Origin: Somniosus microcephalus
Lineage: Eukaryota
DNA: 64,000 bases
NCBI GenBank assembly: GCA_052327205.1
Contig: CM126211.1
Coordinates: 35,588,001 to 35,652,000, forward strand
Direction of reading: 5' to 3'
Shown: piece after piece, positions 18,648-53,755 of the stretch
How positions within the stretch are numbered: position 1 is the first letter of the stretch
Layout: each line of letters starts with the position of its first letter
The notes under the pieces: generated by a model
What the model was told of the DNA's origin: nothing
The model's database searches: none
The model's input: only the letters and a program-made list of their open reading frames with translations
Program-made: the position numbers and the translations under genes

Positions 18648-19324
18648 TGGCCACTGTAAGACATTCTGATTGTCTGACAGTTTATAGAGTTCAGACCCAT
18701 AGAACAGACAATACAAATCCCAATGAATCTGTAAAACCTTTTTACTTAATAATCAACAAGAGGTTACAAGTAATTACCAGAATACAAACTGTACTCAATT
18801 CATGTACTTATTACAAGCAAGCATCTAAAATCATTGGCCTAGAAATTCAGCTGTTTGCGCCAGCCGTTAGCGCCAGATTTCCGGCGCTATCCACTTAGCG
18901 CCCGGGCACCGCCGGATCTGCGCCTACGCCGAAATTCAGCTGGGCTTTAGCGCCGGCGCAAAGTGTTAGCGCCCGCTCAGCTGCGCGCGCATCTTATGAC
19001 GTCATTCCGTCGTGCAACGCCGTTTGTGCGCCCCAAACCGGAAATTCAGTGGCGCCCGGCCGATGTGGCCGTGGCGCTGCTAAGAACTGTGAAATGGAAC
19101 TCAACAGAGGCCCTGTGGGATTCGGGGAGCGCTAATTAAAGGGCACATCCACTCACCCATAAAAGCCAGCCATTTCGCTGCAATGACTTGACTGGTTTGG
19201 ATTTCTGCACAGAGAGCAAGGCACAGAGATTACTGATTTCGGACACCATAGGAGAGGTATTTTTGGCTTCTAGCCAGTGCTTTGACATTTGCATCCTTGT
19301 GATTTTGCTGTTTGGAACTTTGTA

Positions 19325-31073: not shown

Positions 31074-32385
31074 GTCTGGAAGGAACTTCGAACAGTCTCC
31101 TTGGATGAGCATCTTCTCTGCTTCCTTATTCATTTAGAATCAGGAAGCACTGCCAATGTTTGAGTCAGGGCTACAACATGGGAGGTGCTTCAGAGTGAGA
31201 ACAGGGGCTCTGGAACCCAGTGCCAAACTACAGTAACAGTTGGAAACTCGAGTCCTAGACTGCTCATGTACAACTCTATAGGGGATCTACAGGCTTGAGG
31301 AATATATAATTTCTTTAAATGATCACCAGAACAGACTTTCACTTTACAATTATATTCAGCTTTGTAAATATCTTAAAACATCAAAAACTGTAGCCAGGTT
31401 TGACGCCTGGTCTATATTGAGTTGTCTGATTTAAGTTGAGATAGTAATGCTCAGTGTTGCTGGACTAAGACTGTTGTGCATGTACCTTTAAGGGAATAAC
31501 TGGCCTCAGACTGCAGTACCGGCAGTGACCACCCCTGTATAAAAGGCCCTAGTAGGCTTCTGTAGTTTCAGTTTCCAAGTTGTCTCCATTCAGTAAAGAC
31601 TTGTTATAATCAACTCCTGCAGTCTGTGTCTCAATTATACACGGACAAAATACTGGTGACGAGTAAGAAATGAACTTACCTGCAACTCGGCAGCACCTCA
31701 GACGACGTTATTGAAGGTCGAAGCCAGAAGAAAAAAAAAAAATAATAATCCAAAGAAACTCGAGAAACGGGCGTCGACCGTGGGCAACTGCCCTCCAAAT
31801 CATCGAATTGAAAAGTGCAGGAGAGACTGTCGAGAGCCAGGCTTTGTTCTCCAGTCTGTGGTTTCACAGCTAATCGGGCTGGTGGCAGGTAGTGCACTGA
31901 TCCTTCCTGGGCTACGGCGGGCTAGAGCTCGATCGGGTGGCTCTGCAACGGGGCCGGGCAGCGAGTCGGGAAGCAAAGAGAGAGAGAGAGGGTGGAGCAC
32001 ACAGGGCGCGGCCGGTGTTTCGAAGCCGGGCAGCGTTCGGACCTAAGAAGAGGGAGGGAAGTGTCCCAGAGGGTCCGCTCCACGCCGGGAATGGTTCTTC
32101 AATTAACGGAGCAAATATTGAAGCGCGATAGAAAAATAAAAATACCGCGGAGAGCGGCGTTGGCAGCAGCGATCAGGGAGGCGCGACGACCATAGGGCGT
32201 CGCCATTACAGGATAGTAAAATAAATATAATCACCAGCAACAGCATTGGCAGCAGCGGCAGTGGCGGGAAAGCGTGGGAGGCACCATCTTAACTCGGCGG
32301 GGAAGAAGGAAAAGCGCGGGAGGCGCCATTTTGATCCATCGGGGACGAAGGCAAAGCACAGGAGGCGCCATCTTAGATTTTCAAG

Positions 32386-35300
32386 ATGCCAAAGACTGGC
32401 GATATCACTGCCTTCGATAATGCAATAGAAGACTGGACCACGTATATGGAAAGAGTCGAGGTATATTGCGAGGCAAACGAAATAGCCGATGAGAAAAAGG
32501 CATCGGTATTGCTAAATTTAATGGACGCAAGAACGTACGGCCTATTGCGGGACCTGATTACTCCAGCCAAACCAAAGGCGAAGAGTTTTAACGAAATTGT
32601 TGCTTTCCTACAGGAACACCTAAATCCTACACCGCTGCTGATAGCAGAAAGATTTAAATTCCACAGGAGAAATCAGCATAAAAATGAGAGCAATGCTGAT
32701 TACCTTACGGAACTATGCAAGCTATCAAAGCACTGCCAGTTCAGAGCAGGACTGGCAAATACCTTACGGGACAAATTTGTCTGTGGACTCCTGAGTGAAG
32801 GAACCCAGAAGAGGTTACTCTCAGAGAAAGAGATGACGCTAGATAAGGCTTTCAGCGTGGCAGTATCATACAAAGCAGCAGCAAGGGGAGCTGCAGAAAT
32901 ACAACAAAAGCCACAGGAATACGGCACCCACGAAATGACACGGGGATTTGCAAAATGTTATCGCTGCGGCAGAACAAACCATGACCAGAAGGACTGCTGG
33001 TCCAAGGACAAAATATGCAGGCAATGCAGAAAGATGGGACACATTGCACGAGTTTGCAGGTCTGGGAAGAAGACCAACGACAACAAAAAGGCTACTAAGG
33101 AACCATACAGGAAAGTACAAAAGATGACGGACAGTAGTTCCGAAGACCAGATGAGCGATAGTGAATCCGGGAACAAGAGACTAAGCTGTCTCAAACTTCA
33201 CAACGTAATCGCAAAAGAGGATCACCGAACCATTTGGGTCACCCTCACGATAGCAGGGTCCCAAGTCAAAATGAAATTGGATACAGGATCAGCTCTAACC
33301 GTCATGAATCGACGAGACTACGAGCGGCTATTCTCACACATACCCTTGAGAGAGACATCCATTGTCTTGAGGACGTATACGGGGCAAAAAGTATACCCCA
33401 GAGGAAAAATAAGGGTGCCTGTCGAATACAATGGCAAGAAAATACGGAAATTGTATCTCTACATTCTGCAAGATGGTGGAGCACCGTTATTGGGATGTGA
33501 ATGGATCAGAAAGATAAGTTTAGACTGGCACTCCATTCAGGCACTGACGGTGGCTGGTAAAAAGGATGACGACGTCACTCCTGGACGATTGTCAACAATT
33601 TTAGCTGACGCCAAAGAGGTATTTCAACAAGAACTGGGCACTCTTAAAGGCGTAACCGCCTCGATAAAAATAGAGGAGAATGCAATTCCCAAGTTTTTCA
33701 AAGCAAGACCGGTACCATATGCAATTCGCCCAGCCGTCGAGGCAGAGCTGGAGAATCTGGAGAATGCAGGCGTGTTGTCTAAGGTAGACTGGAGCGAGTG
33801 GGCGACACCCATCATTCCTGTCATGAAGAAAACGTTAAACAATAAGTCTGAGGAGCCAAGGAAGGTTCGCATCTGTGGGGTCATCAAGGTGACGGTGAAC
33901 CCAGTCCTTCACACTGTACAATATCCTCTTCCAAGGATAGAAGATATCTTCGCCTCACTATCTGGAGGGAAGTGTTTTACAAAAATTGACCTAGCACAAG
34001 CATATTTGCAGATGGAGGTTGAAGAATCCTCTAGGAAGTATCTCACGATAAACACTCACAAAGGTCTTTACCAGTATAATCGACTGGTATTCAGAGTAGC
34101 ATCAGCTCCGGCGATATGGCAAAGAGCGATGGAACAAGTCCTGCAAGGGATTCCGGGGACTCAGTGTTACTTGGACGACATCCTAGTGACAGGTGAAGAT
34201 GACAGTGAACACCTTGCCAACCTAGAGCAGGTGCTCACTAGACTACGTGAACATGGGCTACGAGCCAATCGCCCCAAGTGCGAGTTTTTTAAGAAACAGA
34301 TATCGTATTGTGGCCACGTGATTGATGAAGAGTGGTTGCATAAGTCCCCTGACAAAATTGAAGCAGTAGTTAAGGCTCCAGCGCCTGAAAATGTGTCGCA
34401 ACTGAGGTCATTTCTCGGATTGGTGAATTACTACCATAAGTTTTTGCTGAATTTGTCCACAATTCTGCATCCACTGAACGCCCTACTACGAACGGGAGTA
34501 GAATGGAAATGGAGCGATGAATGTAAGCGGGCCTTTCAGAAGAGTAAGGATCTAATCACTTCAAGAGAAGTATTGGCTCACAACAACCCATCACTACCGA
34601 TAAGACTGGCGTGTGATGCTTCTCCCTACGGCATTGGGGCGGTACTGTCACATAAATTCCTTGATGGTTCAGCGAGGCCGATAGCTTTTGCGTCGCGCTC
34701 GTTAACTTCAGCCAAGCGTAACTACGCCCAGATTGACAGAGAGGCCCTCAGCCTGGTGTGGGGGGTGAAGAAGTTCAATCACTACCTGCACGGTCAGAAA
34801 TTTACTCTACTAACTGATCATCAACCTCTCGTCTCCATTTTCAACCCTCAGAAGGGCGTACCGATAATGACGGCACAACGGCTACAGAGGCGGTCCCTGT
34901 TCCTAAGGGCACACCAATATGACATCGAGTACAAAGGAACTAAACAGCATGGGAATGCTGATGGATTGTCGCGCCTGCCGTTGCCGACGGTGGAAGAGGA
35001 ACTGGCAGTGGATCCAGTGGAGTTATTCCACTCGACTATAGTTGAATGTCTCCCTGTGACGCATGCAAACATAGAAAAGGAAACACGAAATGACCCGACA
35101 CTCTCCTGGGTCTATGATTTAACGGTGAAGGGATGGCCAGCACATGGCGAACCACTGCTGCCAGCATTCTCGCCGAGAAGAGAACAGCTGTCAGTGTGCC
35201 GAGGAACCTTGATGTGTGGATCCAGAGTAGTAATTCCACCCAAATTGAAGGATAGAGTGCTCAATGAGCTTCATGAGGGTCATCTGGGAGGGGTAAAAAT

Positions 35301-35808
35301 GAAGAACTTAGCCAGAGCGTTTGTGTGGTGGCCGGGAATCGATAGAGAAATCGAAGAGATGACCAAGAGCTGCACTGGATGCCAGAAGGTCCAAAACGCT
35401 CCACCACAAGCCCCTCTACATCCATGGGAGTGGCCCTCATCTCCATGGCAAAGGGTGCACATTGATTTTGCTGGTCCCTTTATGGACTCAATGTTTTTAA
35501 TTGCGGTGGATGCACATTCAAAGTGGCCAGAGGTAATAAAAATGTCCTCATCCACCACAGAAAAAACTATCACAGTCTTACGAACCATATTCACCAGGAA
35601 TGGGCTGCCTGAACAGATTTGGTCTGACAATGGACCACAGTTTGTGTCTGAAGAGTTCCGGAGGTTCTTAAAGAACAATGGTGTTAAGCATTACACATCT
35701 GCCCCATATCATCCAGCCACTGATGGATTGGCAGAGAGGTTTGTTCAAACATTCAAAAGGCTATCAAGGCAATGTGTATTGAAGATATACCCCTACAACA
35801 CAAGGTGG
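32386..35808 (+). pseudogene. G2 gag-pol (long open frame; integrase C-terminus continues at 48140-48676)
   Basis: Single ORF with zinc knuckles, LDTGS, YLDD, DAS and integrase core; frameshift near 35755, then provirus insertion. Confidence 0.92.
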
Positions 35809-37347
35809 TGTAGGGTTTTTTTTCCTGTTCTCTTGCCCGTTCTGGCCCCCTGCCAGGCTTCGTGCAAGAATTACCCTTGAGTGGTTCGACCCACCCCCCC
35901 CTACGGTTCTAGACCTTGGACTTAGATGCAGAGAACAGTAATGCAGAGAAGAGGACTCAATAGACCAGGCTGAATAGCACGAAATGGATGCTTTTATTTT
36001 TGAACAGTTTGAAGCATTACAAAATACATGTCATAGGCACAGATTAAAGTAACTACAATCATGCACAAATTTATGAACTTGACTCTATGGAAATGGGGAA
36101 CACACGGCACATCGTAAAAGGGGAAACACATTACGATTTCCCTTAACTCCCTCCCCTATACCTAAACTAAGTTTCGACCTGGGGAACTTGGGATCATGCT
36201 CACCACTCTCGAAATCGCGAAAAGGGGTTCGCAGCCTTTTTGACACCGCTTCCCGTCGTCACGTGGATTGGAAGCTTCTGGCGCAGTCGATATTCTCTCC
36301 TCCCTCGAGGCGGTGGGGTAGACCCAGCCTCGATGAGCGCTCGTCAAGGTTGAGATCCACTAGGCCTGTCGTGGATTTTTGTTCGTGGAGTAGACCTAGA
36401 TGCAGGTTATGCACATGGGAGAATCTTGTGGCATCGATCGCCGGTTCTCCAAAGGGTTTCTTCTCCGTCGGCCTGGGTCGTCGATGATCTCCCGACCCCA
36501 GTACCCGGGCCACCCTTGTCGTCTTCTCGTCGTGGCCGAGCCTTGTTTGGCTGAACACCGGCCACGTTGTCCCTTTTCCGAAACCGTCCGTCTTTAAAAA
36601 GACGAAAACGTTTTCATCGATCTGCCGAAGTGGAAGAGGCGCCGATCCGGGCACCGTCCGCCCTTCGTTCGTTCCTCGTAGAAGAAAGTTCTTGAAGAAA
36701 AAAGGAAGCCTGAAGTCGCCCAACAAGAAGCCGTAGCAGTGAAGAAGTAACTTAGATGGACTTTCAATCCATAGTTATACTCTTTTGGGACAGTCTTATC
36801 TCCTGCCAAATCATAGTCCTGTCTTTGTATTAATTTTGGCGGGCAGAGATCTCTGCAGGGGCGCTTTGTCTGGTAACGGAGCCGGTGATAACTTGAACTG
36901 GCCTTCCTGGCCGATAATGTCTGTTAATGTCCTTTGCATTGTCACCGCGGCTCGGTTCGCATATTGATCGGTCCGGACATTTTCCTTGATGGCTGCTAAA
37001 CGGTTTTTCCTTTGTACAATAAATGGGTATAAGTGTTTTTACATTGTCCGCCCATATCTTGATGGGCCCCATCCTGTACTTATAATCCATTGAATATGTA
37101 TGCTGTTGCTCTGAGTTTCGGTTCCCAGATACTGGCTTTCGCGGGCTTACTGTCTTCAATCCACAAGCCTGTCTGGCTTGCAGTAACAGAAATAAACTGG
37201 TTCAGAAACTGATCACGGGGCCTGGCGGCCATTTTGTATGCCCTTTTATCAAAGGTTTTTCTGTGCAAGCTTACTTTGGTCAATAAACAGTCTTATTTTT
37301 ATCCAGTTTTCTTGCTTGATTTTTGCTGAAAATTTTCGAATCTTACA
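35809..37347 (-). repeat. 3' LTR of provirus
   Basis: TGTAAG...CCTACA on minus; about 99% identical to 46601-48139 by eye; PPT AGGGGGG adjacent at about 37350-37356. Confidence 0.95.
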
Positions 37348-37764
37348 GGCCCCCCTGTGATACTGATAGCTTGCTTAAAGTATCAATCCTTGATGAGCAA
37401 ATTTTCCCTGATTCCCCACATCCAAACTTTCCTGGCACTTAACTATCTATGCCCCTCACGACACATGCAGTTCCCATTTCCGGAGAAAATGAAAATTACC
37501 TCATGCACATTTGGAATCAAAGACAGCAAATCTTAAACTATAACACCTTCACCTGTCAGATGGGCAGGGGTTGATACCCTTTTGCGCCATCTGCATACAC
37601 TTTTTATTAATCAAAACTTAATAACGACTAATAACATAACAATACTTAATTCCTTATAACCCAAACCAAACGCAAAAGAAAACACGGATGTTCAAAAGAG
37701 AAACAAAAACCAAAAAAAAAAAAAAATCTTAAAATGGATGGACTCTTAATCTTCTACTAGCAGC

Positions 37765-40122
37765 TTAAAGTGGGGTGTCTTCTTCCCCCATTCGCACATA
37801 GCGTTCTTTCCATTCGCCCGCGTTCTCGTGCCTCTGGAGGCGTTTGCCTCTCTTACAATGCACGAAGAGCAAAAATATCACAATTAAAACCTGACATCCT
37901 ACTAGGATATGGGATGCTATTCTAATCCAGGCTGGGATTTCTATGTTGGTGAACAAGTCCCACCATGGTGGGATGGTTATGTCCAATATGTCTTTTCCTA
38001 TCTCTAAAGTCTTCTGCTCCAGTGTGTAGAAATGTTTCTGCGAAATTATAACGGCTTTTAAAATCTTGGTGAGGTGTTCGGGAAGAGGGGGAATGACATA
38101 ACCAAAATGCGCGACAAATCGTTGTAAGTCTGTGAAATTCTCTTTGATAGTGATGTGTACGGTGGAGGGCGCAGGAATGGGAACAATTCGTTGTTGTGCC
38201 ACTTGAACCTCGGCCCTGGGTTTGAAACAGAAACTGCTATCACCGACCGAACACCACTCGTGTTGTCCATATCGGTACTGAGGCGCTGCAGTGGTGACGC
38301 AGTATGTCCCACCCCCGATATATGCTACCTGTGGGGGCACATGGTCCTCTGCCATTGCCTCCATGGTGCAATTCACCGGCTTCGCGCTAGCGGTTCTGAA
38401 CCCGCACTGTGGTTTCAAAAAGGCATTCAAGTGCTGGGGACACAGGATGATGTGTGCTCCCCGGCTCCGACATCCCGAGAGGTCGGTGCCTGTCATCGTA
38501 CGCTCCCATCTGATGACGTAAGGCGGGACCACTGCGTAACGAATGTGTGCGCCCCCCTGAATGACTCCAATGTTCTCCACTCTGTATACCGGGGCGGGCT
38601 TTGCTGCGGGACCCAACACCGGCATTCTTACTACTATTCCCATAATAGTGTGATTCGAATGTCCGCAGTCCACTGGAACTGGGTATGCTTCTGCGGCTAG
38701 CCTGAGCTGGCACGGGCTTAATGCATTCTCAAAAGGGTGGAGCGCTTGCAAGTGCTTGTTGCTGATCCAGGACGGGACCAAACCCTGTTTTAAATCCTCA
38801 AGATTACTGCGGCCCTAGCCCAATAACCACGCCCCGTACAGCACACAGGCCTCGTTTTGCGCAGCCTGATCGGACGCATTCCGATCCTCCTTAATGAGTG
38901 CATTTACCGTTCTCGCGTGTTTCTCCAGCTCAGCAATTATGTCCTTAAAGTGTAGTGTCATGGCCTGGTCCTCATGCAACTCAGAACCCACTACCTTGTT
39001 TTCGTCTGTCAATATGTTCCTTAACTGGGCTTTTAAACCGTTGATCTGTGTCTGCAGCTCCACGTTATCTAGAGCGTTGACAACAGATGTCCCGGTATTA
39101 AAAGCAGTGAATATGTCATTTACAGTACCCCTTCTTTGCCTCCCGACTCGATCCAAAACTTCTGGCGGTGTGGTGTATAATTTGTCTCTGTCGATGTTGG
39201 CAAAGTCAAATTCGTAAAATTGTCTAAACATACGGGTTAACAGGACCTGGTATAATTGTTCCGTTTCTTTGGGACACCACTCCGGCAATCTTACCTCAGT
39301 GAGATTTTAAATCACTGAGGCCACCGCGTAGTGTACCCCTTGGTACAGCACCTGACCGGTGGGTACCAATACTAAACTGTTCCCGGGTCCCTTGGTGGTG
39401 GTTGGGCACCCTCCTTTCTGGGCTAGTGCTACCGGAAGCGTGGGCAGGGGCTTGCGTGGGCGGGTGATGAGTTCAGTGGCGTTCACCGGAATAGGGGAGT
39501 ATGGGGCTCCGCACGCTCGAGTGCTAACATCCCATCTCATCCCCTTCCCTTCATCCTGCCACTGCCTCTGGAAGAAGATGGACACGCCCTTGGGGCAGAC
39601 GTGTCTCGAACCCCACATACAGACATATATTCCCTCATCTGGTTCCCACCATTTGTCCCAACACACACGTAATTGTCCGTGAGTTCCCGTAATAGTCCGA
39701 TGGGTGTTATTACCCAGTCACTCCCACTTGACCGTAGAGTTTCTCATGTCCTTTCCCAGCTTTCGTAGCCACCACCATCGCCTTAGTGGTACGTTCCCAT
39801 TGCACACCAGACAAATCCTCTTTCCCACGGTAACGCTGACTCTGGGCGCTAGGATCCTCACTCGAGGGCACGTTAATGAAGTCTCTTGGTAGGCAAAACC
39901 GAAATTGCTGGAATATTCCGTAGAATTCGTTCCCAGCCAACCTGGCCATCTCCCTTGGTGGAAGTAGGTGGCGATTTCCTCTACCTCTCGCTCCCCCGTC
40001 CCATCCGTTGCGATGGGGGCCGTGTCCCCGGAGCACCCGAAAATGATGACGTCCTTGGTGCGGCCTCGGTAGGCCCACCCGCACCCGATCGCCATGAACA
40101 CGACGACAATCCTTTCCATCAT
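37765..40122 (-). pseudogene. env: Envelope glycoprotein (~785 codons, 3 in-frame stops)
   Basis: Four track ORFs share one frame; signal peptide MMERIVVVFMAIGCGWA, furin site RQRR (39130-39141), heptad region, Cys-rich region, TM helix, YVRM tail. Confidence 0.85.
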
Positions 40123-40304
40123 ATCCCAGGTTTCTGTAACCAACAAAACGATGTAGCTGGGCTCCCGATAGGTGCTGGCCTAAATTAATTGGACGCGCGG
40201 GTTCCTGGACCCCGCTCCCTAACAAACACACATACCGGGCAGACCTCAAAATTGTACTCTTAACACCATATACTTTACATTCCTCAAACTATGACCATAA
40301 TTAC

Positions 40305-43300
40305 CTAACTTAACTTATGTACAGCGCCGCCCTCCGTGGGGCGGCTTTCCGAATCCCTGTGAGGTCTGTCGTGTGCCACACCCTGCGGTGGGGCTGCATT
40401 GATCTTTGGCTTTGATCCCCCGCAGCCTGTCGCTGCTGAACGGGGATCATGTCTTCCTGGGGCTGCTTCAAACCGTGGTTGTGAAGGATGGGGAGAATCT
40501 GGCCAAAATTTTCTGGGCTGGGGCGCTTGAGCCGACCTACGAGGGGCTGCTTTGGGTTGGGCTCCCGGGGCCGATGGACCGGGGGTTGGGACTGTTACCG
40601 TTACAGCCTGTGGTTCCTCCACAGCTGCCGGCTCCAGCTCCCCTCCCTCAGGCTCCGCCCCCCCGGGGTCGGGATCTGTGGCTTCTGACTCCACCTCACC
40701 TGTCCCTACAGGTAACGAGTCTCCGCCCCCACTCCCTACCTCCCCCAAGCTTGAGTCGAGGGCGGGACTGCCGTCCTCTGACTCTTCCTCCTCCGTGATT
40801 GGGTCTAAAGCGAGGTTGAGCTGTTCGGGCTCTCCCCTGCCTAAATCCCATTCAAAAGATGAGACCTCCCACTCCAATGGGATGGCCTCTCCCTTCACGC
40901 AGGCTACTGCTCCAGCCTGTGTAGTCTGTGACTCTGTTACAGGATGAGGATCTTTGTTCTCAGACCTGGTCCCCTTTGGTGGCCCTTGTGTACCCGGTTT
41001 AAACAGTTTACACTGGTTGATGTGAAACCATTTGGTACGTCGGGGCGTCTTCACTGCATAAACCATGGGGCTGGCCTTGTCTACAATGCTGTATGGCCCC
41101 ATGTACAGTGGTTCAAAACTCCCTATCCTGGCGTAGTTTCGGACCATGACCTGGTCTCCGACTACCCACTCTTGTTGTTTCCGAGGTTCCAACAACAGTT
41201 TATTTCCCTGGTGCTGTCTTCCCATGTTCCCAGCCGCCTGTCCATAAATCTGTCTCAGGCGCTCCAAGAGGGTTTGGGCGAATTTGTCCCGTTTCACCTC
41301 TCGGAGCTGGCCCTCAGTGAGCACCGGGGCTAGCACATGGGTGGGTGTTCGCATGATCCTTCCAGTCATTAACTCGTGCGGGGAATACCCCGTGCTTTTG
41401 GACTGGCTGGCTCGGATCCCCATGAGGACTAAAGGCAGGACCTCCGCCCATTTCTGGGGCGAGCCCATTGTCTCTTTCCTCAGCTTTTCCTTGAGGGTCC
41501 GATTCATACGCTCAACAATCCCGGATGACTGGGGATTGTATGCTACGTGCCACTTTCCCTCAATGCCCAAAAGCATGAGGGCGTTCTGCATTACTTGACC
41601 GGTGAACTGACTCCCTTGGTCGGACTCTACAAAACGGGGGAGTCCCCACCGTGAGAACACTTCCCGAATCAAGATCTTAGCAGTACCCAGTGCCGTAGCT
41701 GTTCTGCACGGGAAGGCTTCTACCCATTTGGTGAACACATCTACCAGGACAAGGCAGTACTTATAGCCTCCCTGGGCGGCGGGCAGGGGCCCTATGTAGT
41801 CGACCTGAATCGACTGCCATGGTCCCTCTACCCTCCTGATGTGCCCCATGGGCATCTTCCTTTTGTGGGGGTCTGGGTTGTTAGCAGCACACACAAGACA
41901 GCTTGCGCAGAACTCGCGGACATCGTCCCGAAGTCCCGGCCACCATCCCGCCTGCTCCACCCGTTGCCAGGTGACCTCAGGTCCGGGGTGTCCCGCTCCT
42001 GGACCCTCGTGGGCCAATTGCAGGAATTCCCTTCGGTGCTGCTGCGGCACAACCCACTGCTCCTCTCGGAACAGCATACCTTCTTTGACTGTGAGGGCTG
42101 CCGTACTGTACGGACCTTCTACCTGTTTGCCCTCTGTGATGGCTTTTAGGACTGCTTTTAGGGCGGGATCCAGGGTTTGGACGGTCTTTAGGTCTGGGGG
42201 CGGTGTCACCCCTGTGTTCCCGGGAATTCCCTCCCTGCCTTGGATCGCCGCCACGGGTCCGGGTTCGTATGGGTCCCAGAGAATGCCGTTGCGGGCACCT
42301 TCCCTGGCTAGCGCATCCACCTGCTGGTTGCCCTGACTGCGGGGTTCTGTAGTGGAGTGAGCCTTCACCTTATGGATGAACACCTCTCCTTTCTCCCCCA
42401 CAGCTGCTAGGATCTTCTCCAGCAAGGGCTTAACTGTTAAAGGCCGCCCGTCCGCGGAGGTGTACCCGCGTCGGGACCAGATGGCGAGGTACTCTGTACA
42501 CGAATTGCACGTGAACATGCTGTCTGAGCAAATCGTGTATGGGGTTGGGAAAATCTCGGGGTGGGTAACCACGTACGCCACCGCGGACAGTTCAGCCTGC
42601 TGCGCGCTCATAGTGCTGGGGAGCTTAATTGCCAGGGCAATGTTTGCCGCAGGGTCATAAACTCCACACCCTGTGAGTCGCTTGCCGTCAGCTACAGTGC
42701 TAGAACCGTCTACGTAGATCTCCCGGCCTGTGGGATGTATCCCGGCCCGTAAACCTATGTTAACTTCCCATACCCCTTCTACGGAACATTGATGGGCTGT
42801 CCCGGGATATGCCATATTGGCTGCGAGCCTTGGCGCGCAGAGGCCTTTAACTTTGAGATCCATCTGGGAAAGGAGGAGGGTCCAGCGCGCAATCCGAGCG
42901 CTGCTCACGGTCCCATCCTTAATCCTCCCGTCCAGAAGCATCTTCGTGGGGGTGTGATGGGTGAGGAGCGTAATGGGAGAGGTCCCTTTGAAGATCACTG
43001 ATCTGTTCACAGCCCAATGCGTGGCCAGGAGATGCCGTTCGCAATTGGAGAAACTCCTCTCCACATCCGTGAGCACCCTGGAGGAATAAACTACTGGTCT
43101 TAGCTTGCCGTGCTGCTCTTGGAGCAGCACTGCGCTCAGGCTGTCCCCACTAGCGGCTACCTCCAGAAAGAACTCCTCTCCCCCATCTATGGCCCCTAAG
43201 GCTGGCGCGGTCTGCAGATCTCTTTTCAACTTCTCGAATGCTGCCTGGCACCCCTCGTCCTAAGACCACTCGACTCCCTTGTGTAAGAGTCGAAGTAGCG

Positions 43301-44665
43301 GGGCCGCTGTGGCAGCATAGTCCTCGATGAAATCTCTGCAGTACCCGGTCAATCCCAAAAAGGACCTTACACCCGTTACTGTGTTGGGAATCGGCAGATC
43401 TTGTATAGATTCCCGTCTGGCCTTATCTATGGCTCTTTCCCCAGCGCGGATGGCCAGACCCAGGAATTTAACTTCCTGCTGGCCGATCTGGGCTTTCTTT
43501 GGGTTTACTTTGAAACCCTTCCTTTCTAACAGTTCCAACAATTCGGCTAACAGTGGGCCGTGCTGCTCCCTTGTATCTGTGAACAGGAGTAAGTCGTCCA
43601 CATACTGCACTATCTGGTTGGGCTGGCTGAACTCTTTCAAACTCCCCGCCATGCACTGATGGAAAATGCTGGGGCTGTTGTGAAAACCCTGTGGTAAGCA
43701 GTTCCAAGTGTACTGTTGCCCTTTGAAAGTAAAGGCAAACTTGTACTGGTCCTCCCGCCGCAGCGGAATGGACCAAAAACCGTTCGAGATGTCCAGCACC
43801 GTGAATGTGGTCGCCGATGCTGGAATACTCCCTATTAAGTCTGCAACTGCTGCTACCGTGGGCGCGCAGGCTGGGATATTACTATTGAGGACTCTGTAGT
43901 CCACCGTGGCTCTCCACAAATTGTCCGGTTTCTTTACCGGCCATAATGGGGAGTTCACGTGGGTGGCTATCGTCCTCAACACGCCCTGCTGTACCAATGA
44001 AGATATTGCTGTCTCCATGTCGGGTTCTGCCTCCTTGGGGAAATTATACTGCTTTTGGGGTCGGATCATGGGGTCCCCGTCTACGCTGACTTCAAACCCA
44101 GTGACTCTCCCACAGTCGTGCTTGTGGGTGGCGAACGCGGTCAGATTTTCTGACACACGCGCCTGCAAGTCCGTTGGGACGTTTGTTACCATGAGCTCGA
44201 GATCGTAACCTCCTGACGGCTTCATAGTGCACAGGGCCCCCTTTTCTTCCTTCCCGGGATTACGACTACCTTACCTAAACCGCCCTCGGCTCCCCAGAGA
44301 CAGTGATTTCTCAGGTCCACAAGGATCCCGTGTTCCACCAAGAAATCAGCCCCGAGGATGCCTTTCCCCCCCGCCTCATTCCACTTCAATAGGATGCACG
44401 TCCATGTGGTGTGGAGCGCTCCCAACTGAATGGAGAGCGGGAGGGAGTACGCGCCAGCCTGTTCTCTACCTGTGAAACCCGCTACTAAATATGGAGCCTG
44501 GGCGGACAGAGGTGAGGCAAAAGGTTTGTCCGTGTGGATCACGGTACACGAAGCTTCCGTATCCAACAGGTAACTACCCCTTTGTTTCTCCACCTCCATC
44601 TCCACCACAGGTCTTCTCCAAGCGTCATAGCGGAGCGGACACAAGTAGACGGGCTGCGCGGGCAT
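40305..44665 (-). pseudogene. pol: pro-pol: protease, RT, tether RNase H, RNase H, integrase
   Basis: LLDTEAS (DTG to DTE), frameshift near 44250, YVDD, stop at 43260, YVDGS/AELSA/SDS/KVKAH/GNQQVD, HHCC, QVDYIG/SDQG/IVERMN. Confidence 0.92.
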
Positions 44666-44668
44666 CAG

Positions 44669-46597
44669 TCATTTAGGTGTTTCGGCTGGGGTCTCGGGGG
44701 CGATAGGGCTGTTAGCAACCGCTACCTTCCCCTGCCAGGTCATCAGAGACCGCATAGTCTCCAAGACTGACTCGATCGCAGCGGGGTCCACAACCGCACC
44801 ACCCCCTTTATTCGGGGCAGAGGCTACGGTTGGGTTCTGGACTGGTGTTGGGGCAGCGGCCTGCACTTGTGGTTGTGCTGGTGTTGGGTAAACTCTCGGG
44901 CCGTTGGCGACTCGGGCTTGGGCTTGATCTTGGGCTGCGGCGAACGCTCTCTCCCTCTTATCCTTCCAAGGATTCCTACAGTCCTTGCGCCAATGACCCT
45001 CCTTCCCACACCCGTAACAACTGCTATTGGCTTGGGGATGGCGATTTCCCTCCTGACGCCATTCCTTTTTAGCAGAGGCTGCGGGTCTCACCTCATGCAC
45101 CTTTCCTTTCACAACAGGCGTTTTCTTGCCCTTGTTGTTTCTATAACTGATCGTGAGCTGATCTAGTACTACTTCCTCCGTGGAGCGGGCGTTAGTGGGG
45201 TCAAACCATGCTTTGGCCTGCTCCTTCACTACTGGCAGGCAACCTGCTACCAGGCACCGAAGCCAGTGAGCCCTTTGTTCGCCATCCAGCCCGGCCCGGG
45301 CCGGCCCGCCCGGGCAGCTGCGCCGATACACTGGCCACAACCTGTCGGCGAAAACCCTTGGGGGTTCTCCCTCTAGCTGCACTGTCTTTTCTAAACGGAG
45401 GAACGGAGTTCCGTCCCCCTCTCCCATGATCTCCAGAATCTCATCCCGTAGCAACTCATAGTCCCTGTGCCCTCTCTTGCTCTCGTCAGGGAGACACTGG
45501 AGGAGCGAACTGTCCAGGGAGAACAGCAGCATTTTAGACTGTTCAACCCCGTCGCAGTCATTGACTGCTGCGGTCTGCTCCACGTCCCTGAAATGCACGG
45601 AGGGATCTCCTGACTCGGAGAGTTTTGGGATGTGACTTATCATCTCTCTTAGCTGTCGTGCGCTATGAGGCATTATGATCTGACTCTCAAGGGGTCCGTC
45701 ATCGCCATTTTCTTCATTTGGACCGAGCCTCCGGTGTCTCGTTGGACACATCGGCGCCGGCCCCGACTCTACTGTCTGGGGTTGCTCTACCTCAGGGCTC
45801 TCTTCCTCTACCGTCTCCGTCTCCTGTCCCGGAGTCCAAGACTCCTCATAGGCAGGAGGCGCAGAGGGTTCGGGGGTTGGTACCCCAACTGCCTCTTGTG
45901 GAATCGGTCTTTTGGATTCCTTGGCTAGCAACAGCTGACTCGCTGGTGGATTTATGAGACACACCAACCCGTTTGCCTTCGCTAGGGCCTTTCTCAGGTC
46001 CTCTCGCTCCCGGCGGCAAGCGCTGTGGTCGGTGTTCTCAGATCTATCCTCCATGGCCATCTTATATGCTGCCCTGGCTCCCAGGAGCTTTTCCTCTTGG
46101 GCATCTACTTGTTTGGCTAGACGGAAACACCTCTCTCTCATTCTACCTTCACTGGCCTTGGCCTCAACGACCTGACATTTTAAATATTCTACCCGGGTTT
46201 CGTGGCAGCGAATTACAGAGCGGCGTTCCTGATTCAGCGCGTCAAGTGATTCAATCAGTTTTTGACCTCCCGCAACCTTTTCCTCTACGTCTTTAAGCAA
46301 GCCGTTGATCTGGACTGTCTGTGCTGCAACTACCTGGTCCAAAAGCTGGACTTGCTTCTTGTAGCACATCAGCCAGACCGCCTTTTCTACAGATTTCTTA
46401 TGCTCTCTACCCGCTGTCCACTTGATGGCTGCGTCTAGCGGGCGCCTATCCCTTAGTAGATCAGATATCCATTGTTTTGTGAGGTTGACTTTTCTGAAAA
46501 CATAATCTGCTATTCTTTCATCCATCACATTTCGTTTATTCAGATCTTGATCTAACACACTACTTTCCTGCTGCCAAGGTCCTGCCGCGGTCGCCAT
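44669..46597 (-). CDS. gag: Gag polyprotein (642 aa)
   Basis: Open ORF; N-terminal coiled coil, PSAPPAY, capsid-like region, CCHC knuckle CYGCGKEGHWRKDC. Confidence 0.88.
   Translation of the reverse strand: MATAAGPWQQESSVLDQDLNKRNVMDERIADYVFRKVNLTKQWISDLLRDRRPLDAAIKWTAGREHKKSVEKAVWLMCYKKQVQLLDQVVAAQTVQINGLLKDVEEKVAGGQKLIESLDALNQERRSVIRCHETRVEYLKCQVVEAKASEGRMRERCFRLAKQVDAQEEKLLGARAAYKMAMEDRSENTDHSACRREREDLRKALAKANGLVCLINPPASQLLLAKESKRPIPQEAVGVPTPEPSAPPAYEESWTPGQETETVEEESPEVEQPQTVESGPAPMCPTRHRRLGPNEENGDDGPLESQIIMPHSARQLREMISHIPKLSESGDPSVHFRDVEQTAAVNDCDGVEQSKMLLFSLDSSLLQCLPDESKRGHRDYELLRDEILEIMGEGDGTPFLRLEKTVQLEGEPPRVFADRLWPVYRRSCPGGPARAGLDGEQRAHWLRCLVAGCLPVVKEQAKAWFDPTNARSTEEVVLDQLTISYRNNKGKKTPVVKGKVHEVRPAASAKKEWRQEGNRHPQANSSCYGCGKEGHWRKDCRNPWKDKRERAFAAAQDQAQARVANGPRVYPTPAQPQVQAAAPTPVQNPTVASAPNKGGGAVVDPAAIESVLETMRSLMTWQGKVAVANSPIAPETPAETPK
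46579..46596 (-). promoter_or_regulatory. Primer-binding site, tRNA-Arg(UCG)-like
   Basis: TGGCGACCGCGGCAGGAC is complementary to the 3' end (GTCCTGCCGCGGTCGCCA) of vertebrate tRNA-Arg-TCG as recalled; 4 nt from the LTR. Confidence 0.82.
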
Positions 46598-46600
46598 TTC

Positions 46601-48139
46601 TGTAGGGTTTTTTTTCCTGCTCTCTTGCCCGTTCTGGCCCCCTGCCAGGCTTCGTGCAAGAATTACCCTTGAGTGGTTCGACCCACCCCCCCCTACGGTT
46701 CTAGACCTTGGACTTAGATGCAGAGAACAGTAATGCAGAGAAGAGGACTCAATAGACCAGGCTGAATAGCACGAAATGGATGCTTTTATTTTTGAACAGT
46801 TGGAAGCATTACAAAATACATGTCATAGGCACAGATTAAAGTAACTACAATCATGCACAAATTTATGAACTTGACTCTATGGAAATGGGGAACACACGGC
46901 ACATCGTAAAAGGGGAAACACATTACGATTTCCCTTAACTCCCTCCCCTATACCTAAACTAAGTTTCGACCTGGGGAACTTGGGATCATGCTCACCACTC
47001 TCGAAATCGCGAAAAGGGGTTCGCAGCCTTTTTGACACCGCTTCCCGTCGTCACGTGGATTGGAAGCTTCTGGCGCAGTCGATATTCTCTCCTCCCTCGA
47101 GGCGGTGGGGTAGACCCAGCCTCGATGAGCGCTCGTCAAGGTTGAGATCCACTAGGCCTGTTGTGGATTTTTGTTCGTGGAGTAGACCTAGATGCAGGTT
47201 ATGCACATGGGAGAATCTTGTGGCATCGATCGCCGGTTCTCCAAAGGGTTTCTTCTCCATCGGCCTGGGTCGTCGATGATCTCCCGACCCCAGTACCCGG
47301 GCCACCCTTGTCGTCTTCTCGTCGTGGCCGAGCCTTGTTTGGCTGAACACCGGCCACGTTGTCCCTTTTCCGAAACCGTCCGTCTTTAAAAAGACGAAAA
47401 CGTTTTCATCGATCTGCCGAAGTGGAAGAGGCGCCGATCCGGGCACCGTCCGCCCTTCGTTCGTTCCTCGTAGAAGAAAGTTCTTGAAGAAAAAAGGAAG
47501 CCTGAAGTCGCCCAACAAGAAGCCGTAGCAGTGAAGAAGTCCCTTAGATGGACTTTCAATCCATAGTTATACTCTTTTGGGACAGTCTTATCTCCCGCCA
47601 AATCATAGTCCTGTCTTTGTATTAATTTTGGCAGGCAGAGATCTCTGCAGGGGCGCTTTGTCTGGTAACGGAGCCGGTGATAACTTGAACTGGCCTTCCT
47701 GGCCAATAATGTCTGTTAATGTCCTTTGCATTGTCACTGCGGCTCGGTTCGCATATTGATCGGTCCGGACATTTTCCTTGATGGCTGCTAAACGGTTTTT
47801 CCTTTGTACAATAAATGGGTATAAGTGTTTTTACATTGTCCGCCCATATCTTGATGGGCCCCATCCTGTACTTATAATCCATTGAATATGTATGCTGTTG
47901 CTCTGAGTTTCGGTTCCCAGATACTGGCTTTCGCGGGTTTACTGTCTTCAATCCACAAGCCTGTCTAGCTTGCAGTAACAGAAATAAACTGGTTCAGAAA
48001 CTGATCACGGGGCCTGGCGGCCATTTTGTATGCCCTTTTATCAAAGGTTTTTCTGTGCAAGCTTACTTTGGTCAATAAACAGTCTTATTTTTATCCAGTT
48101 TTCTTGCTTGATTTTTGCTGAAAATTTTCGAATCTTACA
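46601..48139 (-). repeat. 5' LTR of provirus
   Basis: Direct repeat of 35809-37347. Confidence 0.95.
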
Positions 48140-48975
48140 GTCGATAACTTCTTGTTTGCCTACCGGAAAGCGACACATGCGGTTACCAACCAAACTCCAG
48201 CCATGAAGTTCTTCAATCGAAGACTACGATGCCGCTTGGATTTGGTTAAGCCAAACGTCAGAAGAGATGTGTAGAACAGTCAGTTTCAGAGTATGAATGA
48301 AAGGCCGACCAGGAGTTTTAAGATAGGTCAACCAGTTTTGGTCCGGGACTACCGCACAGAGAAATGGCAGCCAGGAACGATCTGTACACGGCAAGGACCT
48401 CTAATGTATACCGTGGACGTTGGAGAGAGCATTGTAAGACGCCATGCTGACCAGATTCTAGAGTCACTGGAAAACGTGAACTCCACACCACGATCTGATA
48501 CACCTGGCGATGAAACCGAAGTACCAATTGCATCTACCGCAGAATCGGTGATATTGGAAGCAGACGAACCAAACAACGACATTGATCCCGACTCAACCTT
48601 GCCAGAAGAACCTGATATCCCAAAGAGGCGTTATCCAGACAGAATCAGGAAGCCTCCTCAAAGACTGAACTTATAATTGCTTAACTTCAACCAATGTATC
48701 TAGCAACCGTAATTGTAATTGTAATTAGTTATTATTTAGTTGTTAAATGAATGTTATGTACTGTTTATCTAAAAGGGGAGGAATTGTTGTGTATGTACCT
48801 TTAAGGGAATAACTGGTCTCAGACTGCAGTACCGGCAGTGACCACCCCTCTATAAAAGGGCCTAGCAGGCTTCTGTAGATTCAGTTTCCAAGTTGTCTTC
48901 ATTCAGTAAAGACTTGTTATAATCAACTCCTGCAGTCCGTGTCTCAATTATACACAGACATAATAAAGACAAGGT

Positions 48976-51900
48976 TGTTGTGTCCGTGTGTTAATGGAGA
49001 CACGGAATGCAGGAGTTGGTTTAACAGGTGTTTACTGAACAAAGTCTGGAGGTGAACTAAAAGAGAAAAGACACTATACAGGCTTATATAGCCCGAGTGG
49101 CCACTACCGGCATTACAGTACACAGGGGCTCTTAAAGGCACATACACCACAATTCCTCCCCTTTTAGACAACCAGTACATAACATTTTAAGTAATTGTTA
49201 TTAACATGTGTACAAGAACAATAATCTACACATTTGCTGCAGTTAATCAATTATAAGTCAGTCTCTCTGGAGGCTTCCTGACTCGGTCCGGATAACGCCT
49301 CGGTGGTGTAGTAGTTTTCGGTGGTGTAGTAGGTTCTTTTGGCAAGGTCAATTCGGCTTGAATGCCAGTGTTGGGTTCATCTGGTTCCAGTATTACCGGA
49401 TTGGAGGTAGATACTATGGGTATCTCTGCTTCATCATTAGGCGTATAGAGTGGTGGTGTAGGTTGTCCCTTTTCGGATGACTCTATGATCTGGTCAGCAT
49501 AGCGCCTTATTATGCTTTCTCCAATGTCCACGGTATACTTCAGCGATCCTAGTCATGTGCAAATAGTTCCAGGCTGCCATTTCTCGGTACGGTAGTCCCG
49601 GGCCAAAACTTGCTGACCTATCTGGAAGGCTCTAGTTGGCCTTTCATTCATGCCTAGAAATTTTCGGTTCGCTACGTCCCTTCTGATGTTTGGCTTGATT
49701 AAATCCAGCCGGCATCTTAGTCTTCTATTGAATAACATCATGGCGGGAGTTTGGTTTGTAACCACATGTGTTGCATTCCTGTATGCAAACAAGAAGTTAT
49801 CTACCTTATGCTGTAGATTTATGTCTTCATTACCCATGGCCTTTATGGCCTTCTTGAAGATCTGGACAAACCTTTGAGCCAATCCATTGGTGGCGGGATG
49901 GTATGGGGCGGACGTGTAGTGCTTAACCCCATTGTTTTTTAAGAACTTCCTGAATTCTTCGGACACAAATTGTGGTCCATTATCAGAACAGATCTGTTCA
50001 GGCAGCCCATTCCTGGCAAATATGGTCCTTAATACTGTGATGGTTTTTTCCGTGGTGGTGGAGGACATCTTTATTGCCTCCGGCCACTTGGAGTGTGCAT
50101 CAACCGCGATTAAGAACATTGAGTCCATAAATGGACCAGCAAAGTCGATGTGTACCCTTTGCCATGGAGATGAGGGCCACTCCCATGGATGTAGAGGGGC
50201 TTGTGGTGGGGTGTTTTGGACCTTCTTGCATCCTAGACAGCCCTTGGTCATTTCTTCGATGTCTCCATCGATACCTGGCCACCATACAAATGCTCTGGCT
50301 AGGTTCTTCATTTTCACTCCACCCAGATGCCCCTCGTGAAGCTCCTTTAGCACTTTATCCTGGAGTTTGGGTGGAATCACCACTCTGGATCCACACATCA
50401 AGGTTCCTCGGCACACTGACAGCTGTTCCCTTCTTTGCGAGAATGCTGGCAACAGTGGTTCGCCATGTGCTGGCCATTCCTTCACCGTTAAATCGTAGAC
50501 TCGTGAGAGAGTCGGGTCATTTCTCGTTTCCTTTTCAATGGTAGAATTTGTTACTGGTAGACATTCCACTATGGTTGAGTGGAACATTTCCACTAGGTCC
50601 AGTGTATGTGCCTCTTCTACCGTTGGCAACGGTAGACGCGATAAACCGTCAGCATTTCCATGCTGTTTTGATCCTTTGTATTCTATGTCATATTGGTGTG
50701 CCCCTAGGAAAAGGGACCACCTCTGTAGCCTTTGCGCTGTCATAATGGGAACGCCCTTTTTAGGGTTGAATATGGAGACGAGGGGTTGATGGTCAGTCAA
50801 CAAGGTAAATTTTTGTCCGTGTAGGTAATGGTTGAATTTCTTCACTCCCCATACCAGGCTGAGTGCTTCCCTGTCGATCTGGGCATTGTTACGCTCAGCT
50901 GAGTTCAATGAGCGTGATGCAGAAGCTATCGGCCGCTCCGAGCCATCAGGGAATATATGCGATAATACCGCTCCTACGCCGTAAGGGGATGCATCACACG
51001 CCAGTCTGATTGGCAGTGATGGGTTGTAATGAGCCAAAACTTCCTTGGACGTGATCAAGCCTTTACATTTATGGAAGGCATGTTTACAGTCTTCGATCCA
51101 TTTCCAAATTAGTCCCGTTTGTAGCAGTTTATTAAGAGGGTGCAGAACAGTTGACAAGTTCGGTAAAAATTTATGATAGTAATTTATCAATCCCAGGAAT
51201 GACCTTAATTGTGAGACATTTTCAGGTGCTGGGGCTTTTATGACCGCTTCAATTTTTTCAGGTGACTTATGCAACCCTTCTTCGATAATTATGTGGCCAC
51301 AATATGATATTTGTTTCTGGAAAAATTCGCACTTGGGACGATTTGCTCATAGGCCCCGTTCTCTCAGCCTAGTGAGTACCTGCTCCAAATTGGCAAGGCG
51401 CTCGTTGTCGTTTTCTCCTGTCACAAGGATGTCGTCTAGGTAGCATTGAGTCCCCGGAATCCCTTGCAGGACTTGCTCCATAGCCCTTTGCCAGATAGCT
51501 GGAGCTGATGCCACTCCGAAAACCAGTCGATTGTACTGGTACAGGCCTTTGTGTGTGTTTATCGTGAGATACTTTTTAGAGGCCTCCTCAACCTCCATCT
51601 GTAGATATGCCTGTGCCAAGTCAATTTTGGTGAAACATTTCCCTCCGGATAGTGAGGCGAAAATATCTTCTATCCTCGGAAGAGGATACTGTACCGTGTG
51701 AAGGACCGGGTTTACAGTCACCTTGAAGTCCCCACAGATGTGAATTTTTCTCTGTTCTTCAGATTTATCATTATTCTACGTTTTCTTCATGACCGGGATG
51801 ATGGGTGTTGCCCACTCGCTCCAATCTATCTTGGATAACACGCCTGCTTTTTCCAAATTCTCCAGCTCTGCCTTGACTGCTGGACGAATTGCGTATGGCA

Positions 51901-53755
51901 CCGGCCTTGCCTTAAAAAACTTGGGAATTGCCGCATCTTCCACTTTTATTGAGGCGGTGACGCCTTTCAAGGTCCCTAGTTCCTGTTGAAACACTTCTTT
52001 GGCGTTGGCCAAGATGTCTTATAATCGTTCAGGTTTGATGTCATCATCATTTTTTTTCTCACTGGTCACCATCAGTGCCTGAATGGAGTGCCAGTCTAAA
52101 CGTATCTTCCTGATCCATTCACGTCCCAACAGCGGTGGACCACCATCTTGCAGAACGTATAAATACAACTTCTGTATTTCCTTGCCGTTGTATACAACAG
52201 GCACCCTTATTTTCCCTCTGGGGTATACTTTCTGCCCCGTATATGTCTTCAAGATAATGGATGTGTCTTTCAAAGGTATATGCGGAAATAGCCGCTCGTA
52301 ATCCCGTCGACTTATGACGGTCAGAGCTGATCCTGTATCTAGCTCCATTTTAACTGGGGACCCCGCTATTGTGAGGGTAACCCAAATGGTCTCGTAATCT
52401 TCTTTGGCAATTACATTATGTAATTTGAGAGAGCTTAGTCTCTTGTTTCCGGAATCGCTATCGCTCTTCTGGTCTTCGGAGCTACTGTCCGTCTTCATTT
52501 GTACCTTTCTGTACATTTCCTTATTGATTTTTTTTCTGTCAGTGGATTTTTTGTTTCCAGACCGGCATACACATGTAATGTGTCCCATCTTTCCGCATTG
52601 CCTGCATGCTTTGTCCTTGAACCAGCAGTCCCTCTGGTAATGGGTGGATCTGCCGCAGCGATAACATCTCTCGAAACCCCGTGTCATGTCATGGGTGCCG
52701 CAGTCCTGTGGCTTTTGCTGTATCTCTGCAGCTCCTCTTGCTGCTGCTTCGTATGATACAGCTGCACTTAAAGCCTTGTCCAGTGTCAAATCTTTCTCAG
52801 AAAGTAGCCTTTTTTGTGTTCCTTCACTTAGGAGACCGCAGACGAATTTGCCTGGTAGAGAATCTGCCAATCCTGCCCCGAATTGGCAGTGTAGGGTATC
52901 AACAATCTCCTTAAAATTCTTGTCCATCAGTTTGGCTGGAGTGATTAAGTTTCGTAACAGCCTGTATGTCCTTGTGCCCATTAGATTTAGAAGTACCGAT
53001 GCCTTTTTATCATCCTCTATTTCATTCGCTGTGCAATATACCTCCACTCTTTCCACATATGTGGTCCAATCCTCTATATCGCTATCGAAAGCAGTAATAT
53101 TGCCAGTCTTAGGCATCCTGAAAAAAAATGGCGCCACCCGCGCTTTCCTTTCTTCCCCGCAGAAAAAAATGGCACCTCCTGCGCTTTCCTGCCGCTGCCG
53201 CTTCTGACTACGCTGTTCTCCGCGGTTTTTATTTACATAGGTATTTTTAATAGGTGGAGACTCATTCCCGCCGGACTCTCTGGGACTTTTCCCTCCCTCT
53301 GCTTGGTCCGAACGCCGACCTGCTTTGCAGCGCCGGCCGTCTCCCGAGTGCTCCACCCTCTGTCTCTGTTTGCCTCCGCCTTCGCTGCTCGGCCCCGCTG
53401 CAGTGCCAGCCGATGGAGCCCCAGCCCGCCGCCCAGGAGGGATTATTGCAGTACCTGGTGAAACCACAGTTTTTAAAAAAAAAAATTCTTTCTTGTTTTT
53501 CTTCGACTTTCATCTGAGGAATCGATCTCCTTGAGGTGCTGCCGAATTGCAGGTAAGTCCGTTTCCAATTCTTCGCCACTGTTGTGTCCGTGTGTTAATG
53601 GAGACACGGAATGCAGGAGTTGGTTTAACAGCTGTTTACTGAACAAAGTCTGGAGGTGAACTAAAAGATACAAGACACTATACAGGCTTATATAGCCCGA
53701 GTGGCCACTACCGGCATTACAGTACACAGGGGCTCTTAAAGGCACATACACCACA
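48976..53755 (-). mobile_element. Gypsy LTR retrotransposon G3 (same family as G1)
   Basis: LTRs 48976-49151 and 53580-53755, TSD AAGGT, near-identical to G1. Confidence 0.95.
49247..53116 (-). pseudogene. gag-pol of G3
   Basis: Same domains as G1; stops, and an in-frame deletion in gag (EIVDTL joined to HCQFG). Confidence 0.92.

Follow-up and report, generated by a model that had tools for sequence, protein, structure and literature searches.

The window analysed here is a stretch of 64,000 nucleotides from Somniosus microcephalus (assembly GCA_052327205.1, contig CM126211.1, positions 35,588,001 to 35,652,000). It contains an endogenous provirus on the minus strand, running from position 48139 to 35809 in the order LTR-PBS-gag-pro-pol-env-PPT-LTR (LTR, long terminal repeat; PBS, primer-binding site; PPT, polypurine tract). 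We consider it probable that this provirus is a defective copy of a large endogenous family with a canonical retroviral reverse transcriptase (RT), which groups with elements of coelacanth and frogs and likely belongs to a grade resembling snakehead retrovirus (SnRV) and CmiERV lineage I (CmiERV-I) of the elephant shark; that the virus likely entered cells by an envelope protein (Env) with the predicted fold of a paramyxovirus fusion protein (F); and that the family likely spread by reinfection. A preliminary description had called the element a full-length, env-bearing provirus with dual RNase H, which the domain order, LTRs, PBS, and Pfam domains confirm, and a recently active member or neighbour of the lokiretroviruses, on which our results differ in part.

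The RT (43263..44054, on the minus strand like all provirus features below; Pfam RVT_1) carries the motifs LPQGFHNSP and YVDD, as had been noted. The references were SnRV (L031, 10,688 nt, identified by the match of its RT to the SnRV row of the PMC7947760 supplement), 15 genomes with foamy virus motifs, three contigs with lokiretrovirus (Loki) motifs, loci with class II and gamma-, delta-, and epsilonretrovirus motifs, and homologous proteins. Their group labels rest on motifs, and rows P0135, P0121, and P0124, with an RT cover below 85%, were left out of the RT trees. In an 84-row tree rooted on Gypsy, the Loki-motif elements (100/100) were sister to a 99/97 clade of all other sequences, including that of the window. 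The window RT belonged to a group of 12 rows (97/85) with coelacanth, frog, and unnamed proteins. The fork between this group and the SnRV, foamy, ERV-S-motif, and class I and II viruses (ERV, endogenous retrovirus) was open. The group lay outside the 100/100 foamy clade, outside the class I (gamma/epsilon) clade, and not among Gypsy, so that the earlier view of the element as neither Metaviridae nor gamma- or epsilonretrovirus stands. Two more well-supported, unnamed retroviral RT groups were seen at the base of the tree (P0127-P0133 and P0016/P0018/P0138).

In a 40-row subset the support for the canonical clade was 100/95, and forcing the window group with Loki was rejected (p-AU 0.0155, approximately unbiased test). 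In a 30-row tree of whole Pol, Loki again fell outside the clade holding the window sequence (100/99). The RT is 44% identical to that of SnRV (227 bits, the top named reference), 37% to the best foamy virus, and 34-35% to the Loki-motif elements. When a 46-residue RT core was compared by eye, 39/46 residues were identical in CmiERV-I, 35/46 in SnRV, and 25/46 in Loki-Lch. The top matches of the RT in the PDB were foamy viruses. An RT-based search found no relatives in viral contigs, and the Loki motif was found in none of these contigs. Judged by its sequence, the RT of this family is that of a canonical retrovirus and not of a lokiretrovirus, and the arrangement LTR-gag-pro-RT-tether-RNase H-integrase-env-LTR is likewise that of canonical Retroviridae.

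These results bear directly on the proposal that the provirus is a true lokiretrovirus, which would be the first in a cartilaginous fish; Loki is not reported from Chondrichthyes, and the supplement of PMC7947760 has a row 'Chondrichthyes 3 0'. The proposal draws on the dual RNase H, an F-type Env with an RxxR site, a Loki-like integrase, and the same UGA-CU junction between gag and pol. The dual RNase H, found by Pfam as a tether followed by an RNase H, is not diagnostic of Loki because it is common to all retroviruses. Against the proposal stand the rejected monophyly of the RTs, the RT motif (LPQGFHNSP, as opposed to PFG in 24 Loki rows of the supplement of PMC7947760), and gag, which has a zinc knuckle and whose 12 listed blastp matches include no Loki contig. 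We therefore regard membership as highly improbable and already largely refuted. The looser term, a neighbour of Loki, fits Env and the gag-pol junction as well as three domains of Pol (integrase, tether, and RNase H).

The remainder of Pol accounts for much of this likeness. The tether, a degenerate first RNase H (42830..43259; Pfam RT_RNaseH_2, E 1.5e-19, and RT_RNaseH, E 2.5e-17), is 39.6% identical to Loki and 27% to SnRV. The second RNase H (42294..42722; Pfam RNase_H, E 1.7e-20) has the acidic catalytic motifs. The integrase (41007..42050; Pfam Integrase_H2C2 and rve), with an HHCC motif, an rve core, and a GPY/SH3-like end, is 44.6% identical to Loki and 37% to SnRV. In the integrase tree, from which P0012, L049, and some further rows were left out, Loki and eight Gypsy rows fell with the window group (95/94). 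A quick RNase H tree grouped the window group with Loki and foamy viruses (SH-aLRT 92), and in a quick tether tree Loki paired with Gypsy (97), with the window group as the next branch (84). Behind the integrase, pol ends in a low-complexity tail rich in Pro, Glu, and Ala (40305..41006), in which shared variants are unconstrained (4 synonymous to 14 nonsynonymous).

A mosaic of this kind could reflect recombination, either of a Loki-type genome (integrase, tether, RNase H, Env, and UGA junction) that acquired a canonical RT or of a canonical virus that acquired a Loki integrase and Env. The identities just given, the nesting of Loki integrases in the window group, and the RNase H grouping are what such an event would leave, and PMC7947760 argues for repeated domain replacement. 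However, the region of the integrase tree concerned also takes in Gypsy sequences, so that the likeness to Loki may be ancestral; the tether tree places Loki with Gypsy, outside the window group; and the whole-Pol tree keeps Loki out of the clade holding the window. Env, discussed next, cuts both ways: its profile scores much higher against Loki Env than against foamy or SnRV Env, but its cysteines and N-terminal module match those of SnRV Env and are missing from Loki Env. Taking these points together we think recombination unlikely. Most simply, the Loki-like Env, integrase, tether, RNase H, and UGA junction are traits retained from a common ancestor. A relation to CGIN1 is a trait of the Loki integrase. 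Relatives of the window integrase are named NYNRIN-like, and it groups with that of Loki in a tree without a CGIN1 sequence; the window/coelacanth/frog grade is a candidate, besides Loki, for the source of the CGIN1/NYNRIN integrase. The frog and coelacanth Pol relatives (P0007-P0010) are annotated 'NYNRIN-like'.

The env gene (37765..40122) was read as 785 codons with X at three in-frame stops (39718-39720, 39307-39309, and 38815-38817). The protein has a likely signal peptide, an RQRR site (39130-39141), heptad helices, and a transmembrane segment near 37846-37932, and a motif scan found neither CX6CC nor a CKS-17-like motif, as first described. Homologues were found in skate (76% identity), sawshark, smooth-hound, bamboo shark, sevengill, horn shark, and frogs; the nearest named relatives are chondrichthyan. 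Niban exons of the host share 73-76% identity with a sawshark protein, in a comparison without a teleost control, and the host is thus probably, as had been thought, a cartilaginous fish. A structural model built from a 37-row alignment had a mean pLDDT of 61, with blocks of 80-94 across much of the F core. In a structure search it matched the F protein of human parainfluenza virus 3 best (E 2e-11), and also those of henipavirus, respiratory syncytial virus, and human metapneumovirus, foamy Env (E 1.2e-5), lispi- and chuvirus glycoproteins, and baculovirus F. The family profile found foamy Env first in the PDB (E 5e-4). Profile comparison gave Loki Env 98.4% probability and SnRV Env 65% (E 6e-5); in a separate profile search the bit scores were 61 for Loki, 22 for foamy, and 2.7 for SnRV. 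No Loki Env was among the profile members (best 24.6% identity over 406 residues). No Pfam fusion-protein family, PF00523 included, matched Env or the 37 family members, and BLASTP of Env against SnRV Env returned nothing significant. The env of SnRV (L031, 6131-9535) aligns weakly to the F-type family profile with matching cysteines, and a literature search turned up no description of SnRV Env as an F-type protein. On the strength of the model, Env is predicted to have the paramyxovirus F fold (class Ib) and no conventional division into surface and transmembrane subunits, which agrees with the preliminary description.

At the N-terminus of Env, a likely immunoglobulin (Ig)-like module (39619..39861) has weak but concordant support. 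Pfam Ig_3 scored E 0.21 in the window Env and was found in 3/12 family members (best E 0.0085). All Foldseek rows listed for this region but one were antibody domains, none at E <= 0.001, and the UniRef name of the homologue P0220 agrees with such a module. Folded alone, the region had a mean pLDDT of 42.6 and no Foldseek match at E <= 0.001.

The family is large. Searching the 6.45-Gb genome with the RT yielded 2,750 candidates, 40 of which were scored and were all about 100% identical, and the exact 26-nt junction of LTR end, ATG, and PBS occurs 1,656 times (control 0), so that the copy search proposed at the outset has found a high-copy family. Twenty of the 40 scored copies were compared with that of the window. 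Several copies cluster on single contigs. Five breaks are private to the window copy: a frameshift near 44260, in the protease, absent from 20/20 other copies; a pol stop at 43260..43262, found in 0/20; and the three env stops, found in 0, 1, and 0 of 19 other copies. The earlier count of about six lesions thus comes down to five, the gag stop being family-wide. The window copy is unable to make RT-RNase H-integrase or Env. Elsewhere, env is open in 13/20 copies and kept in 19, one copy lacking it, and two of the 20 have no break in any frame.

The LTRs of the window provirus (5', 46601..48139, with AATAAA at LTR position 1350; 3', 35809..37347) both have 1539 bp, as had been described, and begin with TG and end with CA. 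They differ by 12 substitutions (nine transitions and three transversions), rather than the about 14 first counted by eye, and by no indels (Kimura two-parameter distance 0.0078), which corresponds to 1.8 million years (My) at 2.2e-9 per site per year or 18 My at 2.2e-10, the rates used in PMC7947760 and PMC4422223. In the 15 copies dated (five of the 20 were dropped for want of two located LTRs or because of a poor alignment), divergence ranged from 0.0013 to 0.0158 with a median of 0.0052, and the youngest copy sampled would be 0.3 or 3 My old at the same rates. None of the 15 pairs was identical, and current activity is therefore not demonstrated; whether "recently active" is apt depends on the rate. 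Two RNA runs of one study, added by species label and possibly from an organism other than the host, contained 4,518 matching records in 16.7 million and 4,470 in 14.4 million, which covered all 30 bins with opposite strand bias between the runs and no visible splice joint. This is about 0.03% of the reads, compared with a genome share of at least 0.3%. No RNA run was among the sequencing runs listed as holding provirus sequence. Runs X1-X6, with three organism labels, contained 61-71% of the sampled 31-mers. Proteins P0003 and P0005 are close as well, a skate protein being 76% identical to Env and an unnamed Pol 86-89%; this likeness possibly reflects spread between chondrichthyan hosts, or simply close kinship.

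Variants in env indicate how the family spread. Among the 20 sequences, shared env variants were 13 synonymous and five nonsynonymous (p 1.2e-5, or 0.0014 if the neutral share is set generously at 0.35), whereas private ones were 48 and 79 (Fisher p 0.009 for shared against private). This suggests that the lineage needed Env while spreading. The corresponding ratios of private variants in gag and RT (0.4-0.5) mean little because 30 control frames span 0.32-2.25. The family might instead have multiplied mostly inside the cell, by retrotransposition, trans-complementation, or segmental duplication, with env as a passenger, as the very high copy number, the copy lacking env, the two shared env stops, and the clustering on single contigs would allow. 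That account sits poorly with the predominance of synonymous shared variants, with the retention of env in 19/20 copies, and with the distinct 4-bp duplications that flank 14 of 15 copies, and we judge it distinctly improbable. Reinfection of the germ line is the likely mode of spread, as far as these variant patterns can tell.

The gag gene (44669..46597, 642 codons) is open in the window copy and encodes one CCHC zinc knuckle and a PSAP motif. Its ATG (46597-46595) is in a strong context and overlaps the PBS (46579..46596), which begins 4 nt past the 5' LTR, so there is no leader. Reverse-complemented, the PBS gives the 3' end of the tRNA-Arg(TCG) encoded in the genome (three of four loci scanned). 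Exact matches to this tRNA number 341 across the whole genome, and on one contig (G000:C35, about 1.58-4.40 Mb) the primer tRNA forms long tandem arrays with a period of about 1.6 kb. The gag frame ends in TGA followed by CTG (44666..44671), in frame with the aspartic protease (LLDTEA, 44225..44668; weak Pfam match). The TGA is present in 19/20 copies and is hence a feature of the family and no lesion; the CTG is present in 20/20, and the next ATG in just 11/20, which favours readthrough over a separate pol start. An independent start at that ATG was disfavoured on the same count. UGA readthrough at the gag stop is therefore likely from the sequence context. In a Loki-motif element (L048, 4440-4445) gag and pol are likewise in frame behind TGA-CTA. 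TGA-CTA is a readthrough-type context. We found no splice donor consensus in U5 or in the first 600 nt of gag.

Several points weigh against the reading we prefer. The window group is separated neither from SnRV (sister at 61/39 in the best 40-row RT tree) nor from foamy viruses (sister relation, p-AU 0.21), so the grounds for the label SnRV-like are similarity and the placement published for CmiERV-I, a lineage that was itself compared by eye, outside the trees. The whole-Pol tree does not make the window group sister to SnRV; there the group is a grade at the base, with SnRV, foamy, and class I viruses above it (83/97). That tree mixes domains of differing history, and short branches near its root can mislead. 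Loki is represented by two or three teleost-type, motif-labelled contigs, and the trees are without Odin, frog or lamprey Loki, ZFERV-2, and named fish foamy-like sequences. The integrase tree places Loki within the window group and SnRV apart from it, and SnRV Env reaches only its 2.7 bits by hmmsearch. There is no stable RNA structure 3' of the gag UGA (z -0.21, no better than shuffles). The copies compared are the top RT matches and no random sample; two env stops are common to more than one copy, one of them to the window copy and 1/19 others, a pattern to be expected from recurrent mutation or if defective templates were copied to some extent.

The provirus is flanked by a 4-bp target duplication, as had been noted, with one mismatch between its left (GTGG, 35805..35808, plus strand) and right (GTCG, 48140..48143, plus strand) copies; among the 15 other copies for which both LTRs were found, 14 have exact duplications. 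The short polypurine tract AGGGGGG (37350..37356) lies 2 nt ahead of the 3' LTR. The insertion interrupts the integrase of a host Gypsy element (31472..48965, plus strand), and by eye the junction has four extra bases relative to an uninterrupted second Gypsy copy in the window. The two related Gypsy elements, 31472-48965 (plus) and 48976-53756 (minus), are about 83% alike and lie tail to tail, and a third Gypsy-type pol is at 11756-14755 (minus). Three open reading frames (ORFs; 768-1973, 19286-20461, and 30089-30697) encode Harbinger-type DDE transposases (Pfam DDE_Tnp_4). No host gene was found among the window ORFs of at least 200 codons, with a further 13 ORFs scanned. A U3 ORF of 86 codons with an ATG (47622-47882), uninterrupted over its full length in 13/16 5' LTRs, was rejected as an accessory gene, its constraint ratio being 1.1, within the range of the control frames.

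The complementarity of the PBS to tRNA-Arg(TCG), the duplication of 4 bp at the target site, the common frame of gag and pro-pol across a conserved UGA-CUG, and the domain order can be read off directly, and a replication cycle may be proposed around them. Transcription would start from the LTR, Gag would initiate at the ATG overlapping the PBS, and Gag-Pol would arise by readthrough of the UGA. Since Gag starts on the PBS, R-U5 or gag itself would have to contain the packaging signal. Env would be made from a spliced RNA, although no splice was seen, and would be cleaved at RQRR; it would mediate fusion by the class Ib route, with the N-terminal Ig-like module as the likely receptor binder. 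Two features of replication lend themselves to concrete tests: the start of gag on the PBS, without a leader, and the UGA junction.

F-like Env proteins are known from lokiretroviruses (PMC7947760) and, structurally, from foamy viruses (PMC11468914), and Wang and Han considered four scenarios for the origin of Env, none of which could be excluded (PMC7947760). A canonical RT together with an F-type Env under purifying selection, in a young high-copy family, adds a third independent point, and F-type Env may be the ancestral retroviral Env. No report of an F-type Env from the SnRV-like lineage or that of CmiERV-I was listed in a literature search that did not extend to Hayward et al. 2015, subscription papers, Repbase, or Dfam; SnRV-like ERVs of sharks, coelacanth, and frogs are themselves already known, and bioRxiv 2023.10.26.564294 announces a vertebrate analysis for a separate report. 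A further, doubtful step, which we offer tentatively, is that the shark-coelacanth-frog grade is the earliest canonical branch and kept a kit shared with Loki (F-type Env, Loki-type integrase, group I RNase H, and UGA readthrough), that the first retrovirus Env was paramyxovirus-like, that gamma-type Env replaced it later, as in CmiERV-I, and that the leaderless, Ig-tipped family may have an infectious counterpart in sharks or rays. This order is the one seen in the whole-Pol tree, where the grade branches off before SnRV, foamy, and class I viruses, a pattern that short branches close to a root can produce as well.

Among known systems, ERV1 shares the 4-bp duplication of the window provirus, whereas ERV3 and ERV4 have 5-bp duplications and are without a zinc finger and GPY/F (PMC4299795, Table 1), in contrast to the 4 bp, CCHC, and GPY found here. 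Foamy viruses (Fernandez et al. 2024, PMC11468914) resemble the family in the class Ib F-like core of Env, the RNase H group, and the RT matches in the PDB. Foamy Gag has no zinc knuckle, and foamy Pol comes from an mRNA of its own. They differ in that the window family has a Gag zinc knuckle, gag in frame with pol, an RT outside the foamy clade, no detected leader-peptide membrane anchor, and an extra Env module that is N-terminal and not inserted.

Lokiretroviruses (Wang and Han 2020, PMC7947760) share the dual RNase H, the F-type Env, and the TGA-CT(A/G) gag-pol junction, and are the best match for tether, integrase, and Env. The Loki Env traits, namely a relation to Mononegavirales F, an RXKR-type site, a coiled coil, and a transmembrane segment, are all present in the window Env. 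Unlike Loki, the window family has its RT outside the Loki clade, no long spacer between protease and RT, a zinc knuckle, and an N-terminal Ig-like module in Env. For the smc-like gene of some Loki members, neither a separate ORF nor a Pfam SMC match was found in the window provirus.

SnRV gives the top RT score among the named references and shares the single zinc knuckle and gag and pol in frame behind a stop; its Env homology is weak, with the cysteines aligned, and its PBS presumably resembles the tRNA-Arg type. It differs from the window family in having a TAG stop, accessory ORFs, and a leader of about 250 nt; its Env is much longer at the N-terminus, and its integrase is distantly related. 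The SnRV-like clade is clade Huo of Xu et al. 2018 (PMC6001957).

The closest system by eye is CmiERV-I (Han 2015, PMC4422223), which clustered with SnRV in that study. Besides the RT core, its supplement shows similar integrase motifs and a gag TGA-C in frame with the protease, and its host too is chondrichthyan. The Env of CmiERV-I is of the gamma type (by eye, with an immunosuppressive motif and CX6CC), and the lineage has another PBS, a long leader, and an LTR divergence of 3.3%, whereas the window family has an F-type Env, a tRNA-Arg PBS, no leader, and LTRs that diverge by 0.1-1.6%. Because so near a relative carries a gamma-type Env, Env has likely been exchanged within this RT lineage, in either direction, and which type came first becomes testable with trees and structures.

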